A stretch of 64,000 bases of DNA, taken from assembly GCA_963677925.2 (NCBI GenBank), contig CAXXYH010000003.1, positions 1,408,001 through 1,472,000 on the forward strand. The letters run 5' to 3'. The translations under genes and the position numbers were made by a program. Positions 1-44,444 of this stretch are shown piece after piece. Origin of the DNA: Spirochaetia bacterium. Lineage in GTDB: Bacteria; Spirochaetota; Spirochaetia; UBA9216. Each line of letters opens with the position of its first letter. The stretch's first letter is position 1. Below the pieces are notes generated by a model. That model saw nothing but the letters and a program-made list of their open reading frames with translations, ran no database searches and had not been told where the DNA came from.

Positions 1-2313
1 TCGAATTCTATCTGAGATAAAATATGAAAAAAGTGTAAAGCACAATGTAATTATTAATACCGGCAGAATAGCGGCTGTGAAGCCGGGATGTGAGTTGAAT
101 CCGCTGACTCCTGCAAAACGCATTATAACATCTACAATAGGATCAGTTAAAACACTACTCAGAAGTGCTCCGAAAAAAGCCCCTAAAAATGACACTATTA
201 AAAATCTAAGAGCAAATGAGATTCGCAGACTATGGACCGAAAAACCCAACACACGATAGACAGCAATGTCATGCTGTTCTCTTTTCAGTATTTTATTCCC
301 GCTTAATATTACTGCAGTAAAAATCACAGCAGCAGCAATAATATACATAAATATCATCAGCAACCTCATGGCACTGATAATTCCATAGAGGCCGGGCCAG
401 CCGTTTTCATGGACATGAATATCAGCTCTGTAGCGCTGCTCAAGTTCTTCCATCAAAGGAATTCTCATATCAGGCTTTTCAAGAAAATAATGAACACACC
501 AGATTGCAGGATTATCAAATGCTATTTTAAGATATCCCTGGCGGCTTAAGCCGAAGTTGTCACCCATATCATTAGCACACTGATAAAATCCGGTTACAAT
601 ATATTCTTCTGAGCCTTTGGCAGCAGAAAGAGTTACTGTATCTCCTATTTCAGCACCAATGTCAGAGGCAAGAAATTCGGTAAGAACGACTTCATCATCT
701 CCTGTTCCCGCCCGGCCTTTCAGTATGTGAAGACGGCTGGGTTCAGTTATAATATTGGCTGTATAGTTTACTCCGTTTAAAGCAACACTTTCCATTGCAA
801 GCTCATAAGTATCGGTTATAGGACTGAATTCTGTAATAAGCGATTCAATTTCTTCGCGTTCAAGATCACTGAAAATCTGAACTCCCAAATCATGTTCGGC
901 AGGATTAAAGGCATCCATTAAGCCTTCTCCATTTGGACCAATCCATGAATCGATTCTTCCGATTAATGAAGAAAAGAAAACAAGAAGCAGGGCAATAAAC
1001 AAAGCGCTAAGATAATTCATTTTACCGGAAAGGACCTGACGTAAAGCAAGCCTGACTCTAAAAAAGGATTTCCCCAGTGAAAAATAATTTCTGCCCTTAT
1101 AATCTTCAAGCCCCTGCCTTATTGCCTTGACAGGCTCGATTAGAGCAACTGGGCGGGTACGAAAAAATAAGAAAAGCAAAACCAGAGAGAGCTGTGCCGT
1201 AAAGCCTAACAATATAATAGGTAATGGCAGATTTGGAGGAATAAGAATTCCGGAGGTTGTCAGCATCATACGAATTGCCACGGCAGAAGCTGCAGGGGAT
1301 AATACAAGACCTGCGCCTGCAGCAAGAATAACAGGAAGAATAAATTGAATTATAAGTACGCTCCTCAGATGTCTGCCGGAATAACCTATTGTTTTCATAA
1401 TACTCAAGCTGGCTTTTTCTTCAGTAATTGAACTGCTTATGGCATGACCCATTACAATAAAGGCTGTAACCAGGAGAACAATCGTAAAGGCAATCAGAAG
1501 AGCTGAGAAAATATTCTGAAGTATCAGCATAAAACCGACAAGGACTTCACGGCTGTGAGTGAACTCAGTATATTTTGGCAGATCGGTATGTTCATTAATA
1601 ATTCTGTTGAGATCTGCAATTGAAATATCATCCTTTTTATTTTTTACAACATGGAGCATTAAACCATTTCTTGCCAGAGAGTCTATACCGTAAGAATCTG
1701 CAGAACCAATGATATTTTCATAATCAGTATCACTTATCAGAAAACTCTTCATCCCTATCATAGAACTGCCCATAAACGGATCTTCAAAAAAACCTTTTAT
1801 TTTAAATGAGTAAACAACACCGTTTCTTGCAATTATAAAATCAATTTGATCATCAATTCCTGCTCCGAAAATTGTAACCATAGATGGAGAAACATAAATT
1901 TCACCGGGAATTATTTCTTCAGGAGCCTTTCTATAATCCGACAAATCATCAGAAATAAATTTATATGAAAAAGAGGAGGGAGTATAAGTTATCAACTGAC
2001 CCTCGCTATCGGATTCCTGTTCAAGGATTTCATAGTCAGAGATTATTATTTTCTGTCCGGAAATTGAATCTACTTCTTTCAGTGCTTCTATATCATTTAT
2101 TAAATTATCATTTTCAGAAAAACCGGTAATCCATAAGGTTAAATCTCCGAAACCGAGACGCTTCATCTCATTCAGTACATATGTACCGGAATTTATTCGT
2201 ATTGTGACAACTGATGCCCCGGCAATTGTAATAATCAGCATCAGAATGAAAATACTGAAAAGACTAAGTCTGTGAGCCTTAAGTCCGGAATTAAAAAAGG
2301 TTAGATTACGCAT
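1..2313 (-). CDS. ABC exporter permease, FtsX/MacB-like (3' end runs off the window)
   Basis: Not in the ORF track. Read by hand from ATG at 2313 (MRNLTFFNSGLKAHRLSLFSIFILM...), same frame at position 1 (...VLIITLCFTLFSYFISDRIR). Hydrophobic segments; directly follows a LolD-type ATPase. Confidence 0.85.
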   Translation of the reverse strand, partial: MRNLTFFNSGLKAHRLSLFSIFILMLIITIAGASVVTIRINSGTYVLNEMKRLGFGDLTLWITGFSENDNLINDIEALKEVDSISGQKIIISDYEILEQESDSEGQLITYTPSSFSYKFISDDLSDYRKAPEEIIPGEIYVSPSMVTIFGAGIDDQIDFIIARNGVVYSFKIKGFFEDPFMGSSMIGMKSFLISDTDYENIIGSADSYGIDSLARNGLMLHVVKNKKDDISIADLNRIINEHTDLPKYTEFTHSREVLVGFMLILQNIFSALLIAFTIVLLVTAFIVMGHAISSSITEEKASLSIMKTIGYSGRHLRSVLIIQFILPVILAAGAGLVLSPAASAVAIRMMLTTSGILIPPNLPLPIILLGFTAQLSLVLLFLFFRTRPVALIEPVKAIRQGLEDYKGRNYFSLGKSFFRVRLALRQVLSGKMNYLSALFIALLLVFFSSLIGRIDSWIGPNGEGLMDAFNPAEHDLGVQIFSDLEREEIESLITEFSPITDTYELAMESVALNGVNYTANIITEPSRLHILKGRAGTGDDEVVLTEFLASDIGAEIGDTVTLSAAKGSEEYIVTGFYQCANDMGDNFGLSRQGYLKIAFDNPAIWCVHYFLEKPDMRIPLMEELEQRYRADIHVHENGWPGLYGIISAMRLLMIFMYIIAAAVIFTAVILSGNKILKREQHDIAVYRVLGFSVHSLRISFALRFLIVSFLGAFFGALLSSVLTDPIVDVIMRFAGVSGFNSHPGFTAAILPVLIITLCFTLFSYFISDRIR

Positions 2314-2325
2314 CCGATTTATTCC

Positions 2326-3087
2326 TTACCATGAAAGGCCGGACAACCAGTTATTAACGTGCTTCTCACGTTCTTTTTCCAGACTGATATCAAATGAAGG
2401 CATTTTCATTTCTGCAACAATGTGTCCATCTTCGAGATACAGGATTCTTGTTCCTCTGACCGCAGCCCTTACATCATGAGTAGCAAGGAGTATGCTATGC
2501 GATTTTTTATGTAAGTTTATCAGAATATCAAAAACTTTATCTGAACTGCTGCGATTTAAAGCACCGGTAGGTTCGTCAGCAAACAGCAGTCCCGGTTCAT
2601 TTATCACAGCCCTGGCTATTGCGGCACGTTGTGATTCACCTCCGGAGGTCTGATAAGGCAGTCTGGCTCCTGCAGCACTGACATCCATTTCATTTAGTAT
2701 CCGGAGAGCATTTTCAGTAATCTCTTTTTCGGTCTTATTCTTATCGAGGTATCCGGCAACAGCCACGTTCTCAAACAGGCTGAGATTAGTAATGAGATGA
2801 GTCTGCTGAAAAATAAAGCCGAATTCTTTTGCCCGCAGTTCAGTCATCTTTTTTTCTGAATAGAGGCTTATTTCTTTATCTCTAAAAAAGATACTACCAG
2901 ATGTAATTTTATCAAGTCCGCTTAATGCATACAGAAGTGTGGATTTGCCTGCACCGGACGGCCCCATTATTACAGTAAAATCACCAGTGTAAATTTCAAG
3001 ATCTATATTATTTAAAACAGGGTTTACCCTGGTTCCCTGACGGAAAGATTTACAGATATTCAATCCCTTTATAAGAACATCTTTCAT
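2326..3087 (-). CDS. ABC transporter ATP-binding protein (LolD/MacB-like exporter ATPase)
   Basis: Walker A GPSGAGKS, signature TSGGESQR, Walker B LLFADEPTGAL, H-loop ATHD. Confidence 0.95.
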   Translation of the reverse strand: MKDVLIKGLNICKSFRQGTRVNPVLNNIDLEIYTGDFTVIMGPSGAGKSTLLYALSGLDKITSGSIFFRDKEISLYSEKKMTELRAKEFGFIFQQTHLITNLSLFENVAVAGYLDKNKTEKEITENALRILNEMDVSAAGARLPYQTSGGESQRAAIARAVINEPGLLFADEPTGALNRSSSDKVFDILINLHKKSHSILLATHDVRAAVRGTRILYLEDGHIVAEMKMPSFDISLEKEREKHVNNWLSGLSW

Positions 3088-4451
3088 ATAACACTCCGAT
3101 CAGATTGCTGATCTATAATCAGCCTTTTTTTTCCTGTCTCGGGATCGGGCTGTATTTCAGAAGCGAATTGTATAGAAAAATCGACATATTGCAGATTTTT
3201 CTCTTTAAGAAGTTCATCCATCCGTATAATCATTTCAGTTTTTACACCGTCCCGCTTTTTTTCTTCAGGAACAACTGCCAGCATGGTAAAACCGGAGACG
3301 GAGTTTTTAATAAATTGATAATCCAGAAGCCCGTCGATGCAAAAACCCTCAATAGAAAGGGGATGAAGAAAATCTGCACTTCTCTGCTCACTTCTGAACC
3401 ATAGAACATCTTCATCACGGCTGAGAAGCACCTTCACAAGTGTAAAAGGATATTTTTGGTAAACTGAATTATCGACAGGGAGAAGCTTATCTGAAATTTT
3501 ATATCTTATTAGGGGCTGAATAAAATTGTAAAGTGATGTCAGGTATATGCCGTCATCCTGAATCTCAATATAATTTAAATCATCAAACAGATACATTCCC
3601 TCTTTTGCAGAAGTCTCAACGCCCATTGCAAGCGATTCACTTGCACCATAAACATTAATTATAATTTTACAGAAAACTTCTTCATAGTATGAACGCATTC
3701 CAGTGCTGAGAGGTTCTCCGCAGGAAATAACCCTGCTAACATCAAGTCTTACATCTTCCTGTTTTTTTATATCTGCAAGAATTTTTAAAGCAGATGGATA
3801 CCCGATAATAATGTTTGGATTAAATTTTTCAATCTTATCTTTCCATTCAGGAAGCGGTGTATTAACATCTATAAATAAACGCTTCCCCTTAAGACTGTCA
3901 ACTCCTCCACCGACAGCCATTGCTCCGCCGTAACGCCCGTTTACTGCAGCTATATAAAGTATCCGTATTCCACCAGCCAGCACCTTTAATAGGCCTGGAA
4001 TCGAAAGATCCCATGCTGCTGCTCTGATTATTCCCAGAAGCATTTTATTCCAGGCTTCATCATCATATAAAAAATATCTTGGTGTTCCTGTACTGCCCGA
4101 TGAGTGGACAATGTAGTATTTATCCTGAAACAAGCCCTTGTCTACCGAAGCTTCTTCATCAAATTTACGAAGAGCATTCTGCGACACACCATCAACCGTA
4201 ACTACCAGATCAAAATTATTCATCAATGTTTCTTTATCAATAATAGGGAAATCAGAAAGCGGACGGCTATCAATCTGGTCACCGTAAATTCCTGCCTTTT
4301 GAAATGCTTTCCGGTAATAAGGAGAATTAGCATAAGCATGCTTCAGCATTGTTCTTAATTTTTTCTCACGTAGTTTTATTACTTGGTTCCGATTTTTGCT
4401 CATATTGTTTTTCATAACAAACAAACTTGAGAGCAATTTTATAAAGTTCAT
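3084..4451 (-). CDS. Phenylacetate--CoA ligase-like (PaaK/CapK-type) adenylate-forming enzyme
   Basis: HAYANSPYY N-terminus, P-loop HSSGSTGTP, GYPS, CGEPL, YGASE, PLIRYKISD, C-terminal TGKKRLI. Confidence 0.85.
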   Translation of the reverse strand: MNFIKLLSSLFVMKNNMSKNRNQVIKLREKKLRTMLKHAYANSPYYRKAFQKAGIYGDQIDSRPLSDFPIIDKETLMNNFDLVVTVDGVSQNALRKFDEEASVDKGLFQDKYYIVHSSGSTGTPRYFLYDDEAWNKMLLGIIRAAAWDLSIPGLLKVLAGGIRILYIAAVNGRYGGAMAVGGGVDSLKGKRLFIDVNTPLPEWKDKIEKFNPNIIIGYPSALKILADIKKQEDVRLDVSRVISCGEPLSTGMRSYYEEVFCKIIINVYGASESLAMGVETSAKEGMYLFDDLNYIEIQDDGIYLTSLYNFIQPLIRYKISDKLLPVDNSVYQKYPFTLVKVLLSRDEDVLWFRSEQRSADFLHPLSIEGFCIDGLLDYQFIKNSVSGFTMLAVVPEEKKRDGVKTEMIIRMDELLKEKNLQYVDFSIQFASEIQPDPETGKKRLIIDQQSDRSVI

Positions 4452-5542
4452 CAGAGATCTCCATTCAGGTAAAATGAATAACTTTTAGTATAGTCTTCTC
4501 TGTGAAAGTATTGAGCTTTAAGATTTTCCTGATCGAATACAATACTCCATTCAGTTGAAAGAAACTCTTCAAAGTTTTTTTTGCTTACCCTGCTGAGCGC
4601 ATCTCTTACATCGGCTTCATTCATGCTGTAATTATTATTAATTATTTCATCAAGTATCCGATATCGTTCATGCGACTGAGCCGAACCTATCCCCTGCTTT
4701 TCACCTTCTGCCAAATAAAAATTAGTTAGAATTGGAGTATCAATAATTTTCATTTCATTATTCACATATTCAACAGCAACACTCCGTCCGGACGCATCGG
4801 CTATTGCAAAATGGACCATATATCCGAATGAAGCATGAAGATCATATGAGTCCAGAAGATTCAATGCTTCATCAACATCTGATGCCTTATCCAGAAGAAG
4901 CCGTATCAGGGTTGATGTGGTGATGTCAGGTTTTGCACTACGCTGATCAATTGTTGTAGAATAATCTTCTATCATATTAACTGCAACACAAAGCCCCTTC
5001 TCATTCATTCCATCCAGCGGAGCATATAAGGAGGCGACAGCAAGGATTCTATCCGGCATCAAATTAAACATAACACCGGTTTCTTGTCTGATAAAATCCA
5101 TATTGACTGTGGAAATGGAACCATAGCCATTGTCCGGAAGAGATTGCACCACCATAATATCGCATTTCATCCAGTCGAAATTTCGTCCGAATAAATAGCC
5201 TCCATCCAATGAAGATACAGAAATTGTGCTGCACCCGAACACGGAACCTTCAAAGCTCAGACCTTCAGCTTCGGAAAGCAGATTTTCCGTAAGAAAATTA
5301 AGAACCTTCTCATCGGAGTCTGCTCCGCCTCTGCTTAAAAAGTAATCAAACCCGTAGTCACCCTGGTATAAAACAGTTGTAAAACCATTCTCTACCTTTC
5401 GTATTTTTGTTTCAGGTATTATTTTCATGTCAGCATATTCGATCTGAGTATCTTCTTTGCTGTTTTCAAAATTACCGGCGGCGCTTAAAAGGGACACACT
5501 TAAAATAAATACGCTGACTGAAAATAAAAATAATCTGTACAT
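4451..5542 (-). CDS. Exported Ntn-hydrolase (peptidase C45 / linear amide C-N hydrolase family)
   Basis: Signal peptide, internal G|CSTIS autoprocessing Cys, GRNFDW, DGMNEKGL, LTNFY. Confidence 0.85.
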   Translation of the reverse strand: MYRLFLFSVSVFILSVSLLSAAGNFENSKEDTQIEYADMKIIPETKIRKVENGFTTVLYQGDYGFDYFLSRGGADSDEKVLNFLTENLLSEAEGLSFEGSVFGCSTISVSSLDGGYLFGRNFDWMKCDIMVVQSLPDNGYGSISTVNMDFIRQETGVMFNLMPDRILAVASLYAPLDGMNEKGLCVAVNMIEDYSTTIDQRSAKPDITTSTLIRLLLDKASDVDEALNLLDSYDLHASFGYMVHFAIADASGRSVAVEYVNNEMKIIDTPILTNFYLAEGEKQGIGSAQSHERYRILDEIINNNYSMNEADVRDALSRVSKKNFEEFLSTEWSIVFDQENLKAQYFHREDYTKSYSFYLNGDL

Positions 5543-5544
5543 AC

Positions 5545-6027
5545 CTAACGTTCTACATTTATGATCATAACATTCCAGCCGTCAAGAACAGGATTTTCTT
5601 CTACAGCTCTTATAAAATCATCGGTTGCGCTAAACTCACCGACTTTTGTGTACTCACCGCTCACCTGGGCATCATGGAAGAAAAGAACAAGTCGGTTGGG
5701 TTTGGAATAATACACTTCACCGGCTTTTTCAGATTTTACAGTCTTGGAGTTGGACGGAATAGTATACCTGGAAGGAATATCATAATAATGCATCACATCG
5801 CTGTTTTCAAAACCTTTAAATCCAACTATGGGAAGATTCCAGCTTGTTCTCCCCACATGCCTTGCAATTGCAACAGCAGTTTCATTATCTTCAAGTACCA
5901 GGGAATAAGCCTTGCCCTCGTAGCCAAAGATCACTTCCAAATCCGGAAGAGACCCGGAAGAACTCTGGGCAAAACTCACACCTGCGGCGGTAATAAACAC
6001 TATTAAAATAAAGAATATCTTTTTCAT
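5545..6027 (-). CDS. Exported cyclophilin-like fold protein
   Basis: Signal peptide; LEDNETA...AGEVYYSKPNRLVLFF...YTKVG pattern of the cyclophilin-like family. Confidence 0.75.
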   Translation of the reverse strand: MKKIFFILIVFITAAGVSFAQSSSGSLPDLEVIFGYEGKAYSLVLEDNETAVAIARHVGRTSWNLPIVGFKGFENSDVMHYYDIPSRYTIPSNSKTVKSEKAGEVYYSKPNRLVLFFHDAQVSGEYTKVGEFSATDDFIRAVEENPVLDGWNVMIINVER

Positions 6028-6038
6028 CTTAAATCCTG

Positions 6039-6908
6039 TTATTTCTTAAGATCTCCACCGTAAACAGGAAACATACTGGCTTCTCCGTAGTTTTTAATTT
6101 TTTCCATGTTTTTCAGCAGTTCCATATCATCGCCGGATATTTCAAAATCCACATCAGCATTATTTTTCATATGAGCAGGATTCGCAGTTTTTGGAATAGG
6201 AAGAAGTCCAAGCTGAAGGTCATAGCGGATAGCCAGCTGAGGTATAGTAACATTGTATCTTGAAGCAATATCTGCGACCTTTTCATTCTTCATCAATTCG
6301 CCATGTCCAACCGGAGAGTAAGCTTCAACAAGGATTCCCTTATCTTCACAGTATTTAATAAGTTCAGAGGGAGTATTGCTAATATGAGCAAGAATCTGAT
6401 TGACCATTGGTTTAACAGTGCAGTTTTCAAGAATGTTATCAAGATCTTCTTCTGTAAAATTTGAAACGCCGATAGCTTTAATTTTGCCAGCCTTGTATGC
6501 GTCTTCAAGAGCTCTCCATGCCTGACGGTTTCCTTCTAGGAACCGGTCATCTTCCTGATACTCCATCCAGGGTTTAGGACTGTGAATAATCATCATATCA
6601 AGATAATCAAGACCCATTGTTTTAAGCGAACCTGCAATTGAGGCAACAGCTTCATCATAATTTTTCACTTCAGCCGCAAGTTTAGTTGTAACAAAAAGTT
6701 CTTCTCTTTTTACACCGCAGGTTCTTACACCTTCACCTACTCCGCGTTCATTCTGATATGCCTGAGCAGTATCGATGTGCCTGTATCCAAGCGCTACTGC
6801 ATCTTTAACTGCCTGCACAGAATCTTCATCACTGATAAACCATGTTCCAAGTCCAAGGCGCGGAATTTCCACACCGTTTGAAAGCTTATAATTTTCTTCT
6901 AATATCAT
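6039..6908 (-). CDS. Aldo/keto reductase
   Basis: LGLGTW, GYRHIDTAQAYQNE, TTKL, IHSP, AIGVSNF, IPKT. Confidence 0.95.
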   Translation of the reverse strand: MILEENYKLSNGVEIPRLGLGTWFISDEDSVQAVKDAVALGYRHIDTAQAYQNERGVGEGVRTCGVKREELFVTTKLAAEVKNYDEAVASIAGSLKTMGLDYLDMMIIHSPKPWMEYQEDDRFLEGNRQAWRALEDAYKAGKIKAIGVSNFTEEDLDNILENCTVKPMVNQILAHISNTPSELIKYCEDKGILVEAYSPVGHGELMKNEKVADIASRYNVTIPQLAIRYDLQLGLLPIPKTANPAHMKNNADVDFEISGDDMELLKNMEKIKNYGEASMFPVYGGDLKK

Positions 6909-6930
6909 AATTGTTCTCCTTATAAGTCTT

Positions 6931-7791
6931 TTAATCCAGACTTAATTTTACTGTTACATTTCCCTTACCGAGAATTTTCTTCAGCTCTTCTGCTGAAATA
7001 TTTTTTATTTTTCCAATCCTGGTAAAGTTCCAGGAATTAGGAGCATAGTAGATAACAAAAGCATTCCCCTGATAGAGAATTAAATCTCCTGCCTCGGTAG
7101 TTATCTGCTCATCATTTCTGGGGAGACTCTTCGGCAGAGTTCCCACCTTTTCCATCGAACCGTAATCCCTCATATCTACGGCAACCGGTCCGTCGGCAAG
7201 CATCTTCTTCAAGGCTTCCGCGGTTGAATTATCCGCCAGTTCAGCGGTAAGTCTGGTATCGCCTACATATAAATTCACTGTGTTTTCCTCCTCTGCAATC
7301 TCTGCAAGTCTGATTTTAATATCAACTCTTCCCTTAAAAGATTTTACGATACTCATATCTTCATCATTGATTTTGCCAATGATTGGGATACCCGGCATAT
7401 TGCTGAATTTCTCTTCATGATCCACAAGAATGGTAAACCATCCTCCGAACCAGCCTATCTCTCCGATTTTCCAGCTTGTCCTTCCTTCGGAAGGATCTGA
7501 AGGAAGCTCCTCTCTGACAGTACCGCAGAGGTCATCTGCAGCTCGTGAAACTGAAACTGAATACGGAAGCATCTTTAAAAATTCACGACCGGCCAGGGTC
7601 GTATTTATTACAGCGCCCACTTCTGTACCGTTCATTTCAAGGATGACAGGTGTCCCGTCTTCAGACTGTATTGCATTTTCAGCCATAGTGCTGTTCTCCT
7701 GAACCATTTCCTCGCTGCCGGAAGCGGCAGCCGAAGAAATCGGTAAAATTATTATTATCAAACCAAGAATAATTTTTTTAATTTTCTTCAT
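6931..7791 (-). CDS. Exported protein with two tandem cyclophilin-like domains
   Basis: Signal peptide. Domain 2 LADNSTAEAL...MRDYGSMEKVG...AGDLILYQGNAFVIYYAPNSWNFTRIGKI; domain 1 is a divergent copy. Confidence 0.8.
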   Translation of the reverse strand: MKKIKKIILGLIIIILPISSAAASGSEEMVQENSTMAENAIQSEDGTPVILEMNGTEVGAVINTTLAGREFLKMLPYSVSVSRAADDLCGTVREELPSDPSEGRTSWKIGEIGWFGGWFTILVDHEEKFSNMPGIPIIGKINDEDMSIVKSFKGRVDIKIRLAEIAEEENTVNLYVGDTRLTAELADNSTAEALKKMLADGPVAVDMRDYGSMEKVGTLPKSLPRNDEQITTEAGDLILYQGNAFVIYYAPNSWNFTRIGKIKNISAEELKKILGKGNVTVKLSLD

Positions 7792-7818
7792 TTTTATCTC
7801 CTAAGAAGTTATGAATAG

Positions 7819-7849
7819 AGAATACATGCTAGAGATTACTCTAGGTCAA
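7819..7849 (-). promoter_or_regulatory. MerR-type (NmlR/AdhR-like) promoter with dyad operator
   Basis: Minus strand TTGACC (7849-7844), 19-bp spacer, TATTCT (7824-7819). Perfect dyad CTAGAG-N4-CTCTAG at 7829-7844. Confidence 0.85.
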
Positions 7850-7934
7850 GCTTTATTCTTATAAATTTTCCCTTTTTTTACCTTTTTTCTTCGAATTCAA
7901 CATAACCTCCGGACTGTCTACCGAATGTTCTCTA

Positions 7935-8817
7935 CTAAAAGTTTCTTACAAGCCTGAAGCCTCTGCTGAAAAAAGCATCTGTCGAGGGTGTTGCCGAGCG
8001 GTAGGATGAGCGAAGATGCTTACCGAAATCATTCCATCCGCCGCCCCGGACAACCCTGAGGAAACCTCTGCAGGCCCTGATGGATTATCATTCCGTGCGG
8101 CATCATATTCACCATACACGTCAAAGCACCATTCGCTCACATTTCCGTGCATGTTATACAGACCGAACTGGTTAGGTTCAAACTTATCAATTTCAACAGG
8201 CTTTTCCCTGTAGACGCCGGGGAGAGGTATCCATCTCATGCTGTGCAAAATAGTGGTCTTCGATTGTGTAGGGATAAGTTCCGAAATAATTAGCTTCATC
8301 AACACTTATATTATTCCCGGTGTTAAATGGTGTGGCTGTACCGGCTCTGCAGGCATACTCCCCATTCTGCTTCCGTAGGAAGCCGGTATCCATTTGCAGC
8401 CCGATCCCATTCAACGTTTTTTCCGTCTATCCTGTATGCAGGCTGAAGTCCCTGAGAGCGGCTTAGAGCATTGCAGTATTCAACGGCATCATACCAGGTT
8501 ACCGATTCAACAGGCAGATTGTCACCTTTAAACCCGGATGGATTTGTGCCCGTAATCTCTGAATACTCTTTCTGGGACAGCTCATATTTACTTATATAAA
8601 AATCGTTCACAGTTACGGTGTGAAGAAGCTCATCAGTCTCCCGCCAGGATTCCGATTCAGGGCTCCCCATTCTGAAAGTCTCTCCTTTTATCAGAACCAT
8701 ATCTGAAGACAGAGGCTCAGAATTCTGCGAACCGTCCAGCCTTCCCTGAGAATAAGCAGAAAATACAGAACTTAGTAAAACTGAGAGCACCATAACCCTA
8801 ATTAACTTTCTGTTCAT
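7935..8817 (-). pseudogene. Formylglycine-generating enzyme (FGE-sulfatase/SUMF1) family protein, split by three single-base indels
   Basis: FRMGS, YRLPTEAEW|EYACRAGT, PNQFGLYNMHGNVSEWC and RVVRGGGWNDF...GFRLVRNF* (stop at 7935) lie in successive frames. Indels at about 8360-8363 (+1), 8219-8222 (+1) and 8065 (-1). Confidence 0.85.
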
Positions 8818-9417
8818 TTCAAAACCACCCCGTTATCTGTAAGCCATTCTTTTATATCTTTTTCAAGCGACCCACGCCCCCCGTAATAAACCTCAAAAGG
8901 CTCAAGGATTTCAGAGCCCGGACTTGATTTTAGCAATAGCGGAAATAGACTGCCCGAAGCGGCCGCCTCCGTGTGTGCAGAATGGAATAATTCTCTTACC
9001 GGAAAGATCATATTCTTCAAGAAATGTTGCAATAGGCATGGGAATTGATGCCCACCAGTTTGCAAAGCCAAGGTAGATAGTATCGTACTGATCAATATTA
9101 TCAATTTTATTTTTTATCTGTGGTCTGTCTTTTCGCTTCTGCGCATCCTTGGCCTCCGTAAGCACGGCGTTGTAGCCTGATGAGTAAGGTGATACCAGCT
9201 CTATCTCAAAAACATCTGCCCCTGTAAGCTCCTGTACTATTGCAGCAATAGATACAGTATTGCCGCTTGCGTATGTTACAGCATCAACATCTCCGGACAG
9301 ATTTTTGTTTCTGGAGCTTGGATAGATTACCAGCAGCTGCTTTCCATTATCCTGCGCATTAACAGCCAGAGCAATTAAGAGAAAAATACAGATGTTAATT
9401 AAAATCTTTTTTTTCAT
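8814..9417 (-). pseudogene. Exported flavodoxin, frameshifted near the C-terminus
   Basis: SGNT, YDTIYLGFANWWASIPMP, PFCTHGGG in ORF 8911-9417. The expected tail SPGSEILEPF...IKEWL is in another frame (+1 base in the run at 8928-8931). Confidence 0.8.
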
Positions 9418-38014: not shown

Positions 38015-39685
38015 TTATATTTCCCTTTCATATACAGTTTTTCCTCTGAAAACAGTTTTTACAACACGTACATCTATAATCTTTTCGGGGTTGATGGAAA
38101 AAATATCTTCATCAAGAATGATAAAATCAGCAGATTTGCCTGCTTTGATCGAACCTGTCTCATCTTCAAGAAAATTTGCATAAGCAGCATTGAACGTAAA
38201 TGAGTTTATCATGGTTTTTAAATCCACTCTTTCCTCACTCCATAGCGGTTCACCATATTCCGCATCATGAGGATTACATCTAGTTATTCCGATCTGTATA
38301 GCTTCCAGAGGATTCGGATTAATTGTAACCGGAAAATCACTTGCTGATGCTACAACGATTCCCTGATCAATAAATCCAGCCATCGGATATTCATGTTCAG
38401 CCCGGTCGGCACCAAGATAGGGTACCTGAAGTTTGTAATAGTATTCATCTTTCATAAACCAGTAAGGATTGGGAATACAGACTATTCCAAGCTCACTGAT
38501 TTTTTGTATATCGTTTTCAGCGACAATCTGTAAATGTGTAATGCAATGCCTTTCATCGGTTTTGTCGGTTTCGGACAAAGCTCTTTCAAATGATTTAACT
38601 ATAAGAGCGGTTGCTGCATCGCCTATTGAATGTAAATGTACTTGAAATCCATATTCACGCGCAGACTTTATTATTGAAAAAAGCAGTTCTCCGGAATAGT
38701 ATGCCTTCCCCCTATAGCCTTCCATTCTTCCGGCAGCTTCAAGGTAAGGTTCCAGTAAAAAGGCAGTCCCGCCTTCCAATACACCATCCATGAAAATCTT
38801 TACGCTGTTAATTTTAAATTTAAGTCCCGATTCATCCCGGCCTCTTGCCTGATTTATCAGTTCAATCTGATTCAAATCACCAGCCTTATCCCATGCGTAG
38901 GCTCCCCTGAAATACATTTGCAGTTCATCACTATCTGCCAATTCCTTTATTGCCGCGACGGCATTACTTCCGGGAAACAGAACAGCATCAAAAGTTCCCG
39001 TAATCCCTAAAGAAAGTGCCATTTTCTGGTATTCAAGAAACGCATCTTTATACTGCTTTACCGAAAATTCAGGAAAATGCTTCATAACCATGTCAGCGGC
39101 AGACTCCCTGAGTGTACCTATAGGTTCACCGGAATCATCTTTTTCGATAATACCTCCGTCCGGATTTTCAGTATCCCTGCCTATCCCGGCAATCTCCAGC
39201 ATCTTTGTATTAACCCAGAGAGAGTGGTGATCTTCGGACCATAAAATAATAGGTATTTTATCTGAGATACGATCAAGAATTTTTCGGGATGGCCCCTTAT
39301 TGTCAAAAACCGTATTGGTCCAACCATTTCCGGCAATAAAGGTGGCTTCTGGATTTTCCGTCAGATACATTTCAACAGCCTCAATATACTCATCCAAAGT
39401 GTGCATTTCCGAGATATTTACGGAATTCATCAGCTCGACCATTGCTGTAGGATGACAATGAGCATCAAAAAAAGACGGAAGAACCGTATTCCCTCCAAGA
39501 TCAATGATTTCAGTTTCCTGAACGATCCAGTCAATTACACCGGAGTTATCGCCGGCATATGCATATTTACCATTTTTGACGGCTATAGAGTTTACGATTG
39601 TCTGCTCTTCATCACATGTAAAAATATTTCCATTTAGCAGAACAAATTCAGCCCCTTCCAGATTGCCAGTTTTTTTGTCTGTCAT
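38015..39685 (-). CDS. Metal-dependent amidohydrolase (Amidohydro_3/YtcJ-like)
   Basis: PSFFDAHCH, HHSLWVN, KIFMDG, HSIGDAA, HLQ, SASDFPV, GSIKAGKSADF. Confidence 0.92.
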   Translation of the reverse strand: MTDKKTGNLEGAEFVLLNGNIFTCDEEQTIVNSIAVKNGKYAYAGDNSGVIDWIVQETEIIDLGGNTVLPSFFDAHCHPTAMVELMNSVNISEMHTLDEYIEAVEMYLTENPEATFIAGNGWTNTVFDNKGPSRKILDRISDKIPIILWSEDHHSLWVNTKMLEIAGIGRDTENPDGGIIEKDDSGEPIGTLRESAADMVMKHFPEFSVKQYKDAFLEYQKMALSLGITGTFDAVLFPGSNAVAAIKELADSDELQMYFRGAYAWDKAGDLNQIELINQARGRDESGLKFKINSVKIFMDGVLEGGTAFLLEPYLEAAGRMEGYRGKAYYSGELLFSIIKSAREYGFQVHLHSIGDAATALIVKSFERALSETDKTDERHCITHLQIVAENDIQKISELGIVCIPNPYWFMKDEYYYKLQVPYLGADRAEHEYPMAGFIDQGIVVASASDFPVTINPNPLEAIQIGITRCNPHDAEYGEPLWSEERVDLKTMINSFTFNAAYANFLEDETGSIKAGKSADFIILDEDIFSINPEKIIDVRVVKTVFRGKTVYEREI

Positions 39686-39754: not shown

Positions 39755-41221
39755 TTAAAATATAAATCCTGATATCAGAAACAGGATAGCCGAAAATCCG
39801 GCAGCGATAAACCCGTAAGGCATCTGTGTAAGAGCATGTTCATAATTGTCACAGCCTGTAGCTGCCGATGTAATCAGGGTTGCATCTGAATACAGGCAGA
39901 TATGACTTCCCCATACACCTGCGGAAAGAAGAGCTCCTACGGATAAAGCAGTATTTGCACCCAGCGCCATTGACAGAGGAATTACAATCGGAAGCGCAAT
40001 AATATAAAGTGTCCAGTTTGAACCAGTTAGAAATTCAGTAATACCGAAAACAAGAAAAATAATAAACGGCATCAGCTGCGGATTCATTATCTCTTTGGCA
40101 TTGTCGATAACGAACTGAATAAATCCAATTTGATCCAGCAGACCGCCGAATGTATAGCCAAGAGCAATGATGGCAAACATGAACATCATATTTTTAAAAC
40201 CATCCACCAGAAGAACCATGAACTCCTTAATTGTAATTATCTTCTGGGGGACATACAGAAAAAAGGCAAAAACTATCCCCACAGCAGATCCCATAAAAAG
40301 ATCCACATCAAAAAAGATGGTTGCTATTATCAGCACGATTATCGGAAGGAAGAAATTAATAATCCTTGGTTTATCGGGAATATTCAGTTTCTCGTCTCCG
40401 CGAAGATCTATCTTTTCGGAGCCGGGAGGAGCAAGAACTCCTGTTGTCTGTGCCCTTTCCTCAGCTCGTTTCATCCTGCCGATCACGGGCACAACGCCAA
40501 GAATTACCAGTGGGACAATCAATACAGCAGACCAGGCATAAAAGTTATAAGGAAGGGTTTTTATAAAATAAAGCATTCCCTGACCTTCGGGTGCCCACTC
40601 GTTTGCTTCCAGCAGATTTGCAGCAAATGCTGCCCAGGTAGATATAGGGATGAGTACGGAAACCGGAGCCGCGGTTGAATCTACAATATATGAAAGCATT
40701 TCTCTGGATACTTTGTGCTTATCTGTTGCTTTAGGCATGCTTGATCCTATAGTCAGTGCATTAAGATAGTCATCGAGAAAAACTACTACCCCCAGCAGCC
40801 ATGTCCAGAGAAGAACGCCCTTTCTTGTTTTTGCTTTTTTCGCAATCAAATTACCGAATGCGATTGCACCGCCCGATCTTTCAATAACAAGAACCAGTGC
40901 CGACATAAATCCGCAGACCAGGATTACCCAGACAAAGTCTTCATTCATCAGCGTGCCGAAGAACTGACCTACGTATTCAGTAAAGAATGCTCCCTTGAAA
41001 ATCATAAAACAGGCAAATAAACTGGCAATTATCAGACCAAGAATAATTTCATTAGTTAATAGAATAAATGCCATAACAAAGACAGGAGGCACTACACTAA
41101 ACCAGCCAAGATTATCACCTGACGGATTCAGGATAAAAAATAAAACAAGAATTACAGCCGTAGCAATCAACAATAATATTTTTAATAACTTTTTATTTTC
41201 GGAAATCTGTTTACCCAACAT
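39755..41221 (-). CDS. NhaC-family transporter (amino acid/amine-type subfamily)
   Basis: FLDDYLN, SREMLSYIVDSTAAP, PISTWA, TGSNW, GSHICLYSDAT. Confidence 0.9.
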   Translation of the reverse strand: MLGKQISENKKLLKILLLIATAVILVLFFILNPSGDNLGWFSVVPPVFVMAFILLTNEIILGLIIASLFACFMIFKGAFFTEYVGQFFGTLMNEDFVWVILVCGFMSALVLVIERSGGAIAFGNLIAKKAKTRKGVLLWTWLLGVVVFLDDYLNALTIGSSMPKATDKHKVSREMLSYIVDSTAAPVSVLIPISTWAAFAANLLEANEWAPEGQGMLYFIKTLPYNFYAWSAVLIVPLVILGVVPVIGRMKRAEERAQTTGVLAPPGSEKIDLRGDEKLNIPDKPRIINFFLPIIVLIIATIFFDVDLFMGSAVGIVFAFFLYVPQKIITIKEFMVLLVDGFKNMMFMFAIIALGYTFGGLLDQIGFIQFVIDNAKEIMNPQLMPFIIFLVFGITEFLTGSNWTLYIIALPIVIPLSMALGANTALSVGALLSAGVWGSHICLYSDATLITSAATGCDNYEHALTQMPYGFIAAGFSAILFLISGFIF

Positions 41222-41289
41222 CTCTTATTCTCCTTTACAATATTTTATTTACAGTCTTCAGGGTATATCTCTATCACCTCCTTTAGAGC

Positions 41290-41330
41290 AAAAAAAAGAC
41301 CGATGCAAAATACAAATTTTGCATCGGTCT
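41290..41330 (-). terminator. Intrinsic terminator within the 5' leader of the NhaC-family gene
   Basis: Perfect 15-bp stem AGACCGATGCAAAAT-TTGT-ATTTTGCATCGGTCT plus U-tract. Confidence 0.92.
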
Positions 41331-41447
41331 ATTAAAAGCTATCAGCTATCTCTTTTAATCAATTCCGATAATAACGAGTAATAATTTTACTGCGTCCGAT
41401 TCTCCTGAAGCACGGAAACATCCCGTCAGCAGAAGCTCGTCGAACCC
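41290..41447 (-). ncRNA. Riboswitch-like cis-regulatory leader RNA with terminator/antiterminator
   Basis: Own promoter; nested stems GACGAG/CTCGTT, CTGC/GCAG, ACGGGA/TTCCGT; alternative stem TATCGG..ATTAAAAG/CTTTTAAT..CCGATG overlapping the terminator arm. Confidence 0.7.
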
Positions 41448-41451
41448 TGAA

Positions 41452-41480
41452 AGTATATCATACCTTCGGAAAACGGACAA
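41452..41480 (-). promoter_or_regulatory. sigma70 promoter (extended -10) for the leader RNA
   Basis: TTGTCC (41480-41475), 17 bp, TG-a-TATACT (41457-41452). Confidence 0.75.
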
Positions 41481-41545: not shown

Positions 41546-42295
41546 TCAGCCTGTTAAGTATGTGAGAGTCAAAAAATCAGTATCCGCAACCGGATTAACC
41601 TCAATATCTTTTAATTTTACTTTCATTCCGATGTGTCTGGAAACAAGTTCTTCTATCTCCTGCTTGAGGATGTTATAGAATATCATTCTGTTCTGCTCTA
41701 CAATAGAGGCGTTTCGGCCTGAACGGAGAAGGGTTTTTTCAAAAACTGTCTGGACATTCAGACATCTAATTTCCAGCTGTTCCTGACCAATAAAAACGAC
41801 AATATCCCTGGGACCTTTTCCTGAATGCTTTTTTATTAAATTCATGAATTGAAATTTTATGGTTTTCTCTATTTCCTTCTTCTCCACTCCATTCAAATGA
41901 AGAACATTCCCTGTATTTTCCAATACAGATTCAGCAAAACGTTCAAGAGCCTCTTCAAGTTCCATCAATTCAATCGGTTTTATAATATATTTACTTATTC
42001 CAATATCAACGGTTTTTATAATGGAAGGAGCATCACTTAGCGCCGAAGTAATTATGACAGGATTTTGAAAGCCCGATTTCCTTACTTCTTCTATAAACTC
42101 AATCCCTCCCATATCAGGGATTACCAAATCTGTTAAAATAATATCAGGATTATATTTAAAGAACTTATCCAAAGCTTCCTTACCATTTGTTGCTGTAATA
42201 ACTTTGGTGAATCTTCTCTTTAAAAACACTGTCAGAGGTTCAAGAGTATCAACTTCATCCTCTATATATAAAATTCTCAAGTTATAATGCATCAT
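41546..42295 (-). CDS. Response regulator with REC plus DUF2294 (MpsC-like) C-terminal domain
   Basis: ILYIEDE, TDLVIPDMGG, TSA, IIKP. C-terminal IKKHSGKGPRDI...QTVFEKTLL...VEQNR resembles DUF2294; no HTH. Confidence 0.82.
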   Translation of the reverse strand: MMHYNLRILYIEDEVDTLEPLTVFLKRRFTKVITATNGKEALDKFFKYNPDIILTDLVIPDMGGIEFIEEVRKSGFQNPVIITSALSDAPSIIKTVDIGISKYIIKPIELMELEEALERFAESVLENTGNVLHLNGVEKKEIEKTIKFQFMNLIKKHSGKGPRDIVVFIGQEQLEIRCLNVQTVFEKTLLRSGRNASIVEQNRMIFYNILKQEIEELVSRHIGMKVKLKDIEVNPVADTDFLTLTYLTG

Positions 42296-44444
42296 GGTCT
42301 TTATCACTCTTATATACCGGTAAAATTATTCGGCACAATACACCTGTATTTACATTCTCAAAAGAAATACTTCCGTTTAAATGTTCTTCCACTATTATCC
42401 GTGACATATACAATCCAATTCCGGTACCGCCTCCGCCCGTTTTGGTGGTAAAGTATGGTGTGAATATATTTTCCAATATTTCTGATGGAATTCCAGGTCC
42501 GTTGTTCATTACCAAAACAGTAACCTTGGCGCCGCATTCAATTTCAATTTTTATATTCCTCTTATTCCTTGGGTTTTCCAGAAGTGCATCCTTCGAATTA
42601 TAAAGAATATTCGATATAACCTGAGAAAACTCATTGGAGCAACCCCAAACTTCTGCATCAGATTTCATATCGATTGAGATCTTTATATTTTCTATATTAA
42701 AGCTGTCTTCAATTAATTCTTTAGTAAAGAGAATATTCTTGTATACAGAGAAAATCTCTTTCTCGGCAGAAGGGCTAAGAAAATTTCTAAAGTTATCAAT
42801 TGTTTGAGACATCCTGATAATGATTTTCCTTGATTTGTCTATAACTTTACTAAGATAAGCCCCGTCAAAATTTCCATAAAAGTAAGAATCTTCAAGTTCC
42901 GATAATATAATCGAAAGACTGTTTAATGGCTGCCGCCACTGATGTGCTATATTGCCTATCATCTGTCCCAGCTTTGCCTGCCGTGACTGATAGATCATTA
43001 CAGCATCCCTCTGCCTGTTCAACTTCAATTCTTCGGAAACAAGATCTTCAAGCTTCAAATTCAACTGTTCAAGTTTATCAACAGATTCCTTCAGATTCTC
43101 ATCAACCAGTTGTTTCTCGCCGGTAATTCTCTCAATTGCCTCTGCAGCCTGAACGGCTGCATTTTGTGTCCTGTCGAATATTTTTTCAAGAAGAATATCC
43201 TTTGCTCCGATTCCGCCGGTAATTTCGAATTCTTCGATCATGTCGCTGATGATCGTCTGCATTGCGAACACTGAACGAAAAAATGCACCTAAATCATCAT
43301 CCCTGTTTCTAAGCGTTTCAGGAAAGGCATGAGTAAAATCACCTCTCTCAATAATCTTCAACTGCTGGGCTGCACTATCTATGGTTTTTGACAGTTTGTT
43401 TGAGAACAGATAGGCAGTCGAAATTGCAAGAATTATGCTTAACAGTGTAAAGAAGATAATGTATGCTGCAAGCTTGTCTATCGGTCTGTAAATTTCCGCT
43501 CTTGGGGGAATAATTACAAGAATCCAGTCATTAGACAGTTTACAGTAGCCCAGAATCTCATCTTTATCTTCACCCCTGTATTCTACTACTCCGGACCTGG
43601 AATTGAGGTTTGATGTTTCAAGGAATTTAAACATACCGTTTTTAAACTGATTTATCTCAACAGTCTCTGAGGAGTCGGGATCAACAAGCACTTTGCTGCC
43701 GTCTTCATTTAATAGAAATGCATAACCGGTTTTAAAAACTTCCATATTCTGAATAGTTTTTAATATATACTCAAAGTTTATATCGATTCCAACAACACCG
43801 ACAACAGAATCTTCAATTATTACTGGCACTACGTATGAAATAATTTTTATATCAAGCCCTATTTCAGAATAAGGTTCAAACCATATCGGCCGTTTGGAAT
43901 TCATTGTTTCATAAAGATATTTCATACCCTCATTTTCAGTATCCATAAAATAGTTCTTGGAAGGATAGTCTGAGTACAGATCCGGATTATCTATCGTGTA
44001 CCTGCTAATAAGCTCTGTAGTTATTTTATACAGATTCCCGTCACCCGTAATATCCGCAAACCAGATTTCTTCGGGCTCTGCAGTCATATACGGATTAAAA
44101 GTAATATAGACGCCTTCAGGTTCTTTGTAGTTGGAGAGCATATTCTCCAATATTTTCTCCAGTTCCATTTTATATCCGATAAGATAATCAGGATCTACTA
44201 TAAACTCGTTCATATTGAAACCTGATTTTACTATTGCCTGCAGCGCATCTACATAACTTTCAGTTCTTTTGAGGTTCTGGCTGAACTCATTTGCATAACT
44301 TCTGGCCATATATACAAGATTGTTTGATGATTCATGTTTTATATAGCCGGCACTCTGGCGCAGACTAAATCCTCCTACCAGAGTAGAAGTCAGGACAGCA
44401 CATCCTACGATTATACTCATTATCCTGGAACTGACTTTTTTCAC
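42282..44444 (-). CDS. Sensor histidine kinase (Cache-HAMP-HisKA-HATPase)
   Basis: Two TM helices, Cache motifs WFEPY/VGVVGID, H-box IAHQWRQPL, NNGPGI, FTPYFTTK, GTGIGL. Confidence 0.93.
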   Translation of the reverse strand: MKKVSSRIMSIIVGCAVLTSTLVGGFSLRQSAGYIKHESSNNLVYMARSYANEFSQNLKRTESYVDALQAIVKSGFNMNEFIVDPDYLIGYKMELEKILENMLSNYKEPEGVYITFNPYMTAEPEEIWFADITGDGNLYKITTELISRYTIDNPDLYSDYPSKNYFMDTENEGMKYLYETMNSKRPIWFEPYSEIGLDIKIISYVVPVIIEDSVVGVVGIDINFEYILKTIQNMEVFKTGYAFLLNEDGSKVLVDPDSSETVEINQFKNGMFKFLETSNLNSRSGVVEYRGEDKDEILGYCKLSNDWILVIIPPRAEIYRPIDKLAAYIIFFTLLSIILAISTAYLFSNKLSKTIDSAAQQLKIIERGDFTHAFPETLRNRDDDLGAFFRSVFAMQTIISDMIEEFEITGGIGAKDILLEKIFDRTQNAAVQAAEAIERITGEKQLVDENLKESVDKLEQLNLKLEDLVSEELKLNRQRDAVMIYQSRQAKLGQMIGNIAHQWRQPLNSLSIILSELEDSYFYGNFDGAYLSKVIDKSRKIIIRMSQTIDNFRNFLSPSAEKEIFSVYKNILFTKELIEDSFNIENIKISIDMKSDAEVWGCSNEFSQVISNILYNSKDALLENPRNKRNIKIEIECGAKVTVLVMNNGPGIPSEILENIFTPYFTTKTGGGGTGIGLYMSRIIVEEHLNGSISFENVNTGVLCRIILPVYKSDKDHDAL

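Follow-up and report, generated by a model that had tools for sequence, protein, structure and literature searches.

A conserved terminator/antiterminator switch beside a REC-DUF2294 two-component system in a Spirochaetia genome

The intergenic region between a response regulator gene and an NhaC-type transporter gene was analysed in a 64,000-nucleotide stretch of a Spirochaetia bacterium genome (contig CAXXYH010000003.1; the whole stretch is referred to as the window). It holds a terminator/antiterminator switch that is conserved, OFF by default and linked genetically to the adjoining two-component system, i.e. a sensor histidine kinase together with a response regulator in which a receiver domain (REC) is joined to the domain MpsC/DUF2294 (PF10057). 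The default state is called OFF because in each of the 14 leaders compared the terminator was the more stable of the two folds. The RNA motif is new and absent from Rfam 15. With a probability of roughly 0.6, the attenuator is the cis target of the neighbouring two-component system, the phosphorylated regulator turning the operon ON by stabilising the antiterminator. An initial annotation, made from the letters of this DNA, had described a riboswitch-like leader. Its expression platform of ~49 nt proved to be real and conserved, whereas the aptamer and the sensing of a metabolite found no support, and the pattern fits a protein-controlled attenuator.

The terminator stem has six GC pairs and a loop of four, in keeping with an intrinsic (Rho-independent) terminator, and its 5' arm is common to the outer helix of the antiterminator. 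For RNAfold predictions the 14 leaders were cut just before the terminator 3' arm, which mimics the nascent transcript. Outer helix, middle helix and apical hairpin were then present together in 13/14 leaders. The outer helix had 4-7 bp and the middle one 6-8 bp, with an internal loop between them, and a further internal loop, rich in purines, separated the middle helix from a small apical hairpin, the loops of which varied from about 3 to 7 nt. In the window, UAUCGG paired with CCGAUG around the AUUAAAAG/CUUUUAAU stem, as had been proposed. When leaders were folded at full length, the terminator displaced the outer helix in every case, and the freed strand was sequestered by a small upstream hairpin in six of the 14. 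Across the leaders the outer helix varied in step with the terminator arm (CUGGU/ACCAG, AUCGG/CCGAU, CUGAC/GUCAG, UUGGU/ACCAA). The earlier description of an OFF-type attenuator, in which a leader acts in cis and its antiterminator and terminator folds exclude each other, was thus borne out.

Conservation of the motif was assessed with covariance models, the E-values of which are rough owing to a short calibration. MAFFT misaligned the window and locus L070 by 4 columns, and the first model (R1, seven loci) was therefore built without both. R1 found the window element at 41324-41368 with 28.6 bits, as the sole match in the 64-kb window (E 1.3e-5, 203 kb) and as the top match in the 5.04-Mb genome (E 3.1e-4), where the next match reached 19.6 bits, i.e. 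9 bits lower. It also found L052, L057 and L068/69/104, all outside the model. In an 11-sequence alignment made after the R1 search and fitted to the model structure (A7), 91.8% of the cells assigned to pairs were paired versus 79.2 +/- 1.8 in shuffled alignments (0/500 reached the observed value), nine of 17 pairs changed on both sides (2/500 shuffles), and the covariation score was 0.427 versus 0.213 (0/500 shuffles). Partners slid by 1-3 columns paired in just 32-57% of cells. All four outer-helix pairs were fully paired, three of them with compensatory changes, and one pair of the alignment split into AU in five sequences and GU in five, which argues for RNA and not a DNA operator. Because A7 leans toward the model structure, the outer helix was recounted on a plain MAFFT alignment (A4; no structure fitting, window absent), where 46/46 cells were paired (100%) against 0-54% in slid controls. 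Pairing of the terminator arm with upstream sequence was observed in 12/13 sequences, as compared to 5.8 expected from shuffles.

At gathering scores, Rfam 15 gave 0 matches in the whole window, in agreement with the earlier remark that the leader resembles no known riboswitch class. At E <= 10, the leader region returned 14 sub-threshold matches of the small-RNA, microRNA and snoRNA noise type, the best with 26 bits versus a threshold of 60. The ldcC motif, which had been named as the candidate class, was absent from the matches even at this cutoff. BLAST of the leader DNA gave no match in 60 relatives.

The occurrence of the motif followed that of the regulator. In the window's genome PF10057 is represented by a single gene, and the motif is also single and adjoins it. 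Among 401 genomes of the class, PF10057 was mostly found as stand-alone proteins of ~125-140 aa, and was fused to a receiver behind a homologous kinase in three genomes (G000, G006 and G022); in the two other fused loci a leader and terminator again followed the regulator gene. A word-indexed search of 5.8 billion proteins returned 14 REC+MpsC proteins, one being the window's own and the 13 others 36-52% identical to it on the basis of alignment, and the regulator family is accordingly rare. A metagenome scan with the regulator alignment added 19 full-length loci and one near-duplicate, with the same arrangement in the DNA after the regulator stop codon in most of them. A homologous histidine kinase gene lay directly upstream of the regulator gene in most related loci.

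The second model (R2) was built from 11 sequences, including the G006 and G022 copies, and additionally detected L064 (E 0.002) and L070 (E 0.005). It gave one significant match in the window's genome, and among 150 genomes of the class it reached at least 39 bits only in G000, G006 and G022, the G006 copy (L052) having already been found blind by R1. Three marginal matches (23-24 bits) had no regulator and no terminator nearby, and no motif was detected by R2 at 25 stand-alone MpsC loci. In the relatives and metagenomes, the motif was located directly after the response regulator gene in 15 of 23 REC-MpsC loci. An independent sample of 399 Clostridia genomes provided seven more regulator loci, one with the motif (25.3 bits; L148, 1053-1101, minus strand). 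This copy is divergent, ~390 nt from the regulator start, with its own promoter-like site and terminator, and hence cannot be the terminator of the two-component operon itself. All 16/16 model-detected motifs adjoin a REC+PF10057 gene, 15 directly downstream and one divergently, and this constant neighbourhood makes switching by a protein more likely than by a small molecule. The linkage is one-way: all clear motifs are beside the regulator, and the converse fails.

L151 has the same three tiers with a different sequence, L145 has a similar 3' half only, as judged by eye, and in L056 and L060 the regulator gene is followed by a terminator, with no match to the model; none of these four was counted as a motif member. 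Three loci with a regulator match of 25-28% identity (L099, L109, L115), also with no model match, were left out of the locus counts. At four other regulator loci of the Clostridia sample nothing was found within 1.5 kb. The order of genes in L148 is regulator, then kinase, and the motif there heads a divergent unit with a gene for a putative lipoprotein or solute-binding protein.

The genes following the motif were diverse. The first gene encodes an NhaC-type carrier in the window and L067, an amidohydrolase in L052 and L057, an amino-acid permease in L058, L059, L061, L066 and L074, a CitMHS carrier in L064, and a 2-hydroxycarboxylate (2HCT) carrier in L070, and in L068/69 the first genes encode a three-subunit molybdenum dehydrogenase. 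One small-molecule ligand for all these operons is hard to imagine, and the set fits well with a kinase family of differing dCache specificities sharing one common output mechanism. NhaC homologues in relatives (50-54% identity) differed in their neighbours and upstream regions and lacked such a leader. A Clostridia metagenome-assembled genome (L024) holds the closest NhaC (70% identity), the gene of which follows an amidohydrolase gene and adjoins a gene for a PAS/sigma-54 activator. As these relatives of the transporter and amidohydrolase are regulated differently, it is the regulator that the leader accompanies, and not the cargo.

In the response regulator the REC phospho-acceptor set is complete, and no known output domain is present. 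Residues E16, D17, D60 and K110 were invariant in an alignment of 14 homologues, so that the acidic pocket, the phospho-acceptor Asp and the conserved Lys of a two-component response regulator are all present, with the cognate histidine kinase adjoining. The Pfam scan found only Response_reg and MpsC, and no known DNA- or RNA-binding domain. The model of the whole regulator had a predicted local distance difference test score (pLDDT) of 87, and that of the C-terminal domain alone, made with 30 aligned sequences, had 95, with the order helix, two strands, three helices, two strands. A sequence search of the PDB gave receiver domains only for the whole protein and nothing for the C-terminal domain, REC matches prevailed when the fold of the whole protein was searched, and a protein-atlas search gave no usable match. 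As a homodimer, the C-terminal domain was predicted with a score of 0.70 versus 0.01 for the best control, which supports binding at the level of a model; of 30 proteins solved as one-chain pairs, 20 attained the mark used for this score, as did one of 23 solved as single chains. The dimer runs agreed in 100% of contacts, with partner pLDDT >= 91.

The stand-alone MpsC proteins (L027-L051) have the GxGP, T, E and R invariants in common with the regulator-fused domain. According to the available part of a study in Staphylococcus aureus, MpsC, the one stand-alone member known to have been studied, was dispensable for MpsAB function, an mpsC deletion was without phenotype, and outside staphylococci mpsC was not co-located with mpsAB (PMC6689103). 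The designation used in Pfam, 'Na+-translocating membrane potential-generating system (MpsC)', seems misleading. A full-text literature search for DUF2294, PF10057 and MpsC together with 'response regulator' returned unrelated papers only, and nothing on function.

On the basis of these results the following mechanism is proposed. The promoter just past the response regulator gene would start the leader transcript, the last ~90 nt of which could fold either as the antiterminator, using the first 5-6 nt of the terminator 5' arm in its outer helix, or as the much more stable terminator. Unaided, the terminator would win and the operon would stay OFF. The dCache histidine kinase would sense an external ligand and phosphorylate the REC-DUF2294 regulator, which, probably as a dimer, may clamp the antiterminator closed via the conserved purine-rich internal loops, so that RNA polymerase would read through into the NhaC-type transporter and amidohydrolase genes. 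We infer that the regulator acts on RNA, directly and in the activating direction. The more specific proposal that the phosphorylated regulator binds RNA through DUF2294 itself is tentative, at somewhat below even odds. We regard with the same reserve the suggestion that MpsC/DUF2294 may be an unrecognised RNA-binding antiterminator domain. Its fusion to REC would then constitute, next to ANTAR, another class of response regulators that bind RNA, having the three-tier hairpin with its terminator overlap as a conserved target of its own.

Several observations weigh against this interpretation. The A7 alignment was fitted to the model structure, which favours pairing, and just 13 distinct sequences were available, mutually related. 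Arm pairing of at least 4 nt with shuffled upstream sequence occurred in ~45% of shuffles per sequence; as it is this common, evidence from any single sequence is weak, and the argument rests on position and covariation. In 14 of 30 regulator loci no model-detectable motif was present in the fetched DNA, and R2 scans of the whole genomes of five Clostridia with the regulator gave no match among the 150 of ~6,000-9,000 first-look candidates scored in each. As to the protein, the PDB fold search with the C-terminal domain gave none at E <= 0.001, the best template modelling score being 0.48 to V4R/Bet3-like and designed proteins. The invariant GKGP, T53, E56, R73 region lies in or near the predicted dimer interface, and the conservation may therefore reflect dimerisation and not RNA contact. 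The charge of the C-terminal domain is mixed (isoelectric points from 4.7 to 9.6), and it is acidic in two motif-bearing loci.

The regulator could instead have its effect at the promoter, through DNA or RNA polymerase, and the attenuator would then form a layer of its own, either a leaky insulator or a target for another trans factor. A conserved extended -10 element right after the regulator gene in 9/10 loci, the lack of a known nucleic-acid-binding fold in DUF2294, and the 14 regulator loci of 30 with no detectable motif all speak for such promoter action. We consider it unlikely, as a passive terminator would need no covarying antiterminator with conserved loop sequences, three loci leave no room for a promoter between regulator gene and motif, and no operator-typical conserved repeat was seen upstream of the -10 element. 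Still lower in our estimation, and distinctly improbable, is an orphan riboswitch, in which a small molecule would bind the 49-nt hairpin, alone or with the upstream leader, while the two-component system acts separately. The unpaired nucleotides conserved in two internal loops, the covariation of the helices and the overlap with the terminator do form a small-riboswitch layout, and no Rfam family claims the RNA. Against this, each genome has a single copy of the motif, found beside one regulator family only, and the downstream operons serve unrelated substrates. Moreover, the larger 5' domain, i.e. the P1/P2 aptamer of the initial annotation, is neither the preferred fold nor conserved. Enforcing P1 (GACGAG/CUCGUU) gave -17.2 kcal/mol versus -22.9 for the minimum free energy fold, a cost of 5.7, and this fold consists of two separate hairpins; the region could not be aligned with its equivalents in L052, L057 and L054, the nearest three of the homologous loci, and the supposed pairing of UAUCGG back with the 5' UUCGA appeared in no fold. 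Only regulator coding sequence precedes the 49-nt core in L061, L067 and L074, where the motif begins at or inside the last codons of the regulator, so that no upstream domain exists there.

Translation-coupled attenuation, where a ribosome finishing a leader open reading frame (ORF) or the regulator ORF would cover the antiterminator 5' strand, is very unlikely. The stop codon of a 20-codon ORF in the window abuts that strand, ORFs in L054 and L066 end nearby, and in L061, L067 and L074 the regulator stop codon is at or inside the motif. L052, L057, L058, L059, L064 and L068 lack such an ORF, that of the window has a poor Shine-Dalgarno sequence and a start codon buried in a hairpin, and no sequence is shared among the peptides. 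As the ORFs are not conserved, the leader-peptide model was rejected. There is hardly any likelihood left for a plain terminator of the two-component operon with upstream complementarity by chance, which would suit a hairpin located 216 nt past the regulator stop codon and short arm complementarity that is common in shuffled sequence. This terminator-only reading is contradicted by the homologous leaders with covariation in the 11-sequence alignment, by position-specific conservation, by a model that is significant on sequences it had never seen, and by L148, in which motif and terminator head a divergent transcription unit.

Regulated termination by RNA-binding proteins is known for few domain families only. 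In the part available of a 2025 review of RNA-binding antiterminators, the families covered are CAT, ANTAR and HutP, neither of the words DUF and MpsC being used (0 occurrences; PMC12591593). In the ANTAR regulators described in the consulted portions of two sources (EutV/EutW of Enterococcus faecalis, AmiR, NasR/NasT), a leader terminator is overridden by an alternative fold (PMC12591593, PMC3369931). Common to these systems, as far as described there, and the one reported here are a histidine kinase and a response regulator with no DNA-binding domain, a regulator gene beside the leader, and control after initiation. The output domain is, however, MpsC/DUF2294, Pfam finds no ANTAR, and RNA binding is inferred in the present case. 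The ANTAR target, as characterised in the accessible text of a preprint, consists of a tandem pair of hairpins with six-nucleotide loops, of which the second overlaps the terminator (bioRxiv 10.1101/2020.09.27.315978), whereas the motif here is one nested three-tier hairpin with internal loops and variable loop size.

In the CAT-PRD systems (BglG, LicT, SacY), the same portion of the review describes a dimeric protein that clamps an imperfect internal-loop hairpin, the ribonucleic antiterminator (RAT), overlapping the terminator 5' arm, a clamp needed if termination is to be prevented (PMC12591593). On that description RAT is the closest match in RNA logic, being a hairpin with internal loops that overlaps the terminator arm by a few nt. 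Unlike in these systems, no CAT or PRD domain was found by Pfam, and the control proposed is by phosphorelay, versus the phosphotransferase system. No RAT model was among the Rfam matches, and to judge from the tools used the two sequence motifs are unrelated. Riboswitch platforms, including ldcC, likewise have a terminator/antiterminator pair in the 5' leader of transport and catabolic genes, in contrast to which the present motif is single-copy, tied to a regulator gene, and followed by diverse cargo. The switch works like ANTAR and RAT in logic, and lacks the defining features of both as well as of every Rfam riboswitch class.

A conserved, covarying switch absent from Rfam 15 is here paired with a response regulator output domain of unassigned function. 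This joins two questions, namely the role of PF10057 and the way in which such dCache two-component systems reach their target operons. If DUF2294 is an RNA-binding antiterminator, an RNA-related role would be suggested for the stand-alone MpsC proteins. The case also carries a warning, as calling such leaders riboswitches from shape alone would be wrong.

Table 1. Features of the switch region and adjoining genes, in coordinates of the window.
Feature	Position	Strand	Basis or remark
Promoter-like TTGTCC-17-TATACT, extended -10 (TGaTATACT)	41452..41480	-	sequence; predicted transcription start near 41445
Lineage-specific 5' leader	41371..41446	-	two hairpins in the minimum free energy fold, one being ACGGGA/UUCCGU; the formerly proposed P1/P2 lies inside
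Three-tier antiterminator, 49 nt	41322..41370	-	RNAfold of truncated leader, model R1, covariation
Outer helix	UAUCGG 41370-41365 with CCGAUG 41327-41322	-	
Middle helix	AUUAAAAG 41359-41352 with CUUUUAAU 41338-41331	-	
Apical part of antiterminator	41351-41339	-	internal loops purine-rich
Intrinsic terminator	41289..41330	-	15-bp stem 41330-41297, then U8 41296-41289; -20.5 kcal/mol
AAAGGAGGTGATA, Shine-Dalgarno-like 13-mer	41272..41284	-	5 nt past the U tract
Sensor histidine kinase, 720 aa	42282..44444	-	dCache/PDC sensor, HisKA, HATPase_c; Pfam and NCBIfam
Response regulator, REC + MpsC/DUF2294 (PF10057)	41546..42307	-	Pfam
NhaC-family transporter (Na_H_antiporter, PF03553)	39755..41221	-	Pfam and NCBIfam; first controlled gene
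Amidohydro_3 metal-dependent amidohydrolase	38015..39685	-	Pfam and NCBIfam; second controlled gene

The coordinates of the features are collected in Table 1. The promoter-like site given in the initial annotation is present on the minus strand, with TG before the -10 element, and the leader sequence reads as quoted there. Promoter-like sites are not in excess in the 800-nt region (3 versus 2.7 +/- 1.6 in shuffles). An extended -10 element between the regulator stop codon and the motif is present in 9/10 homologous loci with a spacer, as compared to ~2.5 expected from shuffles, and this conservation adds support to the promoter call. The leader extends for ~75 nt before the terminator. Its ACGGGA/UUCCGU hairpin, also noted earlier, was recovered in the minimum free energy fold and in the 14 lowest-energy folds printed. 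The 166-nt leader folded with -53.5 kcal/mol (z = -4.64; 0/200 shuffles as good), an energy dominated by the terminator.

The kinase gene is the first of the two-component pair. The kinase and regulator frames overlap by 26 nt (42282-42307) if the regulator starts at GTG 42307; a database homologue of the regulator starts 4 residues later, at ATG 42295, and the overlap with the kinase persists. The intergenic region from the regulator to the NhaC gene is 324 nt, and the NhaC gene has its own Shine-Dalgarno sequence and ATG. The 20-codon ORF, MFPCFRRIGRSKIITRYYRN, is at 41359-41421 on the minus strand and begins in the 5' leader, with UGA as its stop; its Shine-Dalgarno sequence is weak, its start codon is inside a hairpin, and comparable ORFs were seen only in L054 and L066.

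Twelve nt of AAAGGAGGTGATA are perfectly complementary to the 16S rRNA 3' end of the same genome. The 13-mer occurs nowhere else in the 5.04-Mb genome and is not followed by a start codon. It may serve to stabilise the mRNA or to load ribosomes. STAB-SD of Bacillus thuringiensis cryIIIA is a 5' mRNA stabiliser, and AAAGGAGGTGATA, as the only part of the present leader to do so, resembles it in being Shine-Dalgarno-like, in its long complementarity to the 16S 3' end, and in its position in the 5' untranslated region with no start codon. It differs in being located just past a terminator, versus near a mapped 5' end, and any such function is putative here. The identical 13-mer is found in L052 (~1283-1295, minus strand) in the same relative place, AGGAGGTGATA occupies the equivalent place in L057 (~4940-4950, plus strand), and GGGTGATAG is found in L054 and L059.

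The NhaC and amidohydrolase gene pair is also present in L024, where the order at 2326-7018 is amidohydrolase, NhaC and then the PAS/sigma-54 activator gene. In L058 and L066, a gene for a PAS/sigma-54 activator comes right after the motif-controlled permease. A palindrome-like ATGTTACCGTAACATC box is located ~90-110 nt upstream of the NhaC homologues in L005, L006, L007 and L008 and looks like an operator for a different regulator. In L010 and L016-L019 the NhaC homologues are divergent from a small regulator gene, with a TTGACA-type promoter, and this arrangement is a third mode of regulating this transporter family.

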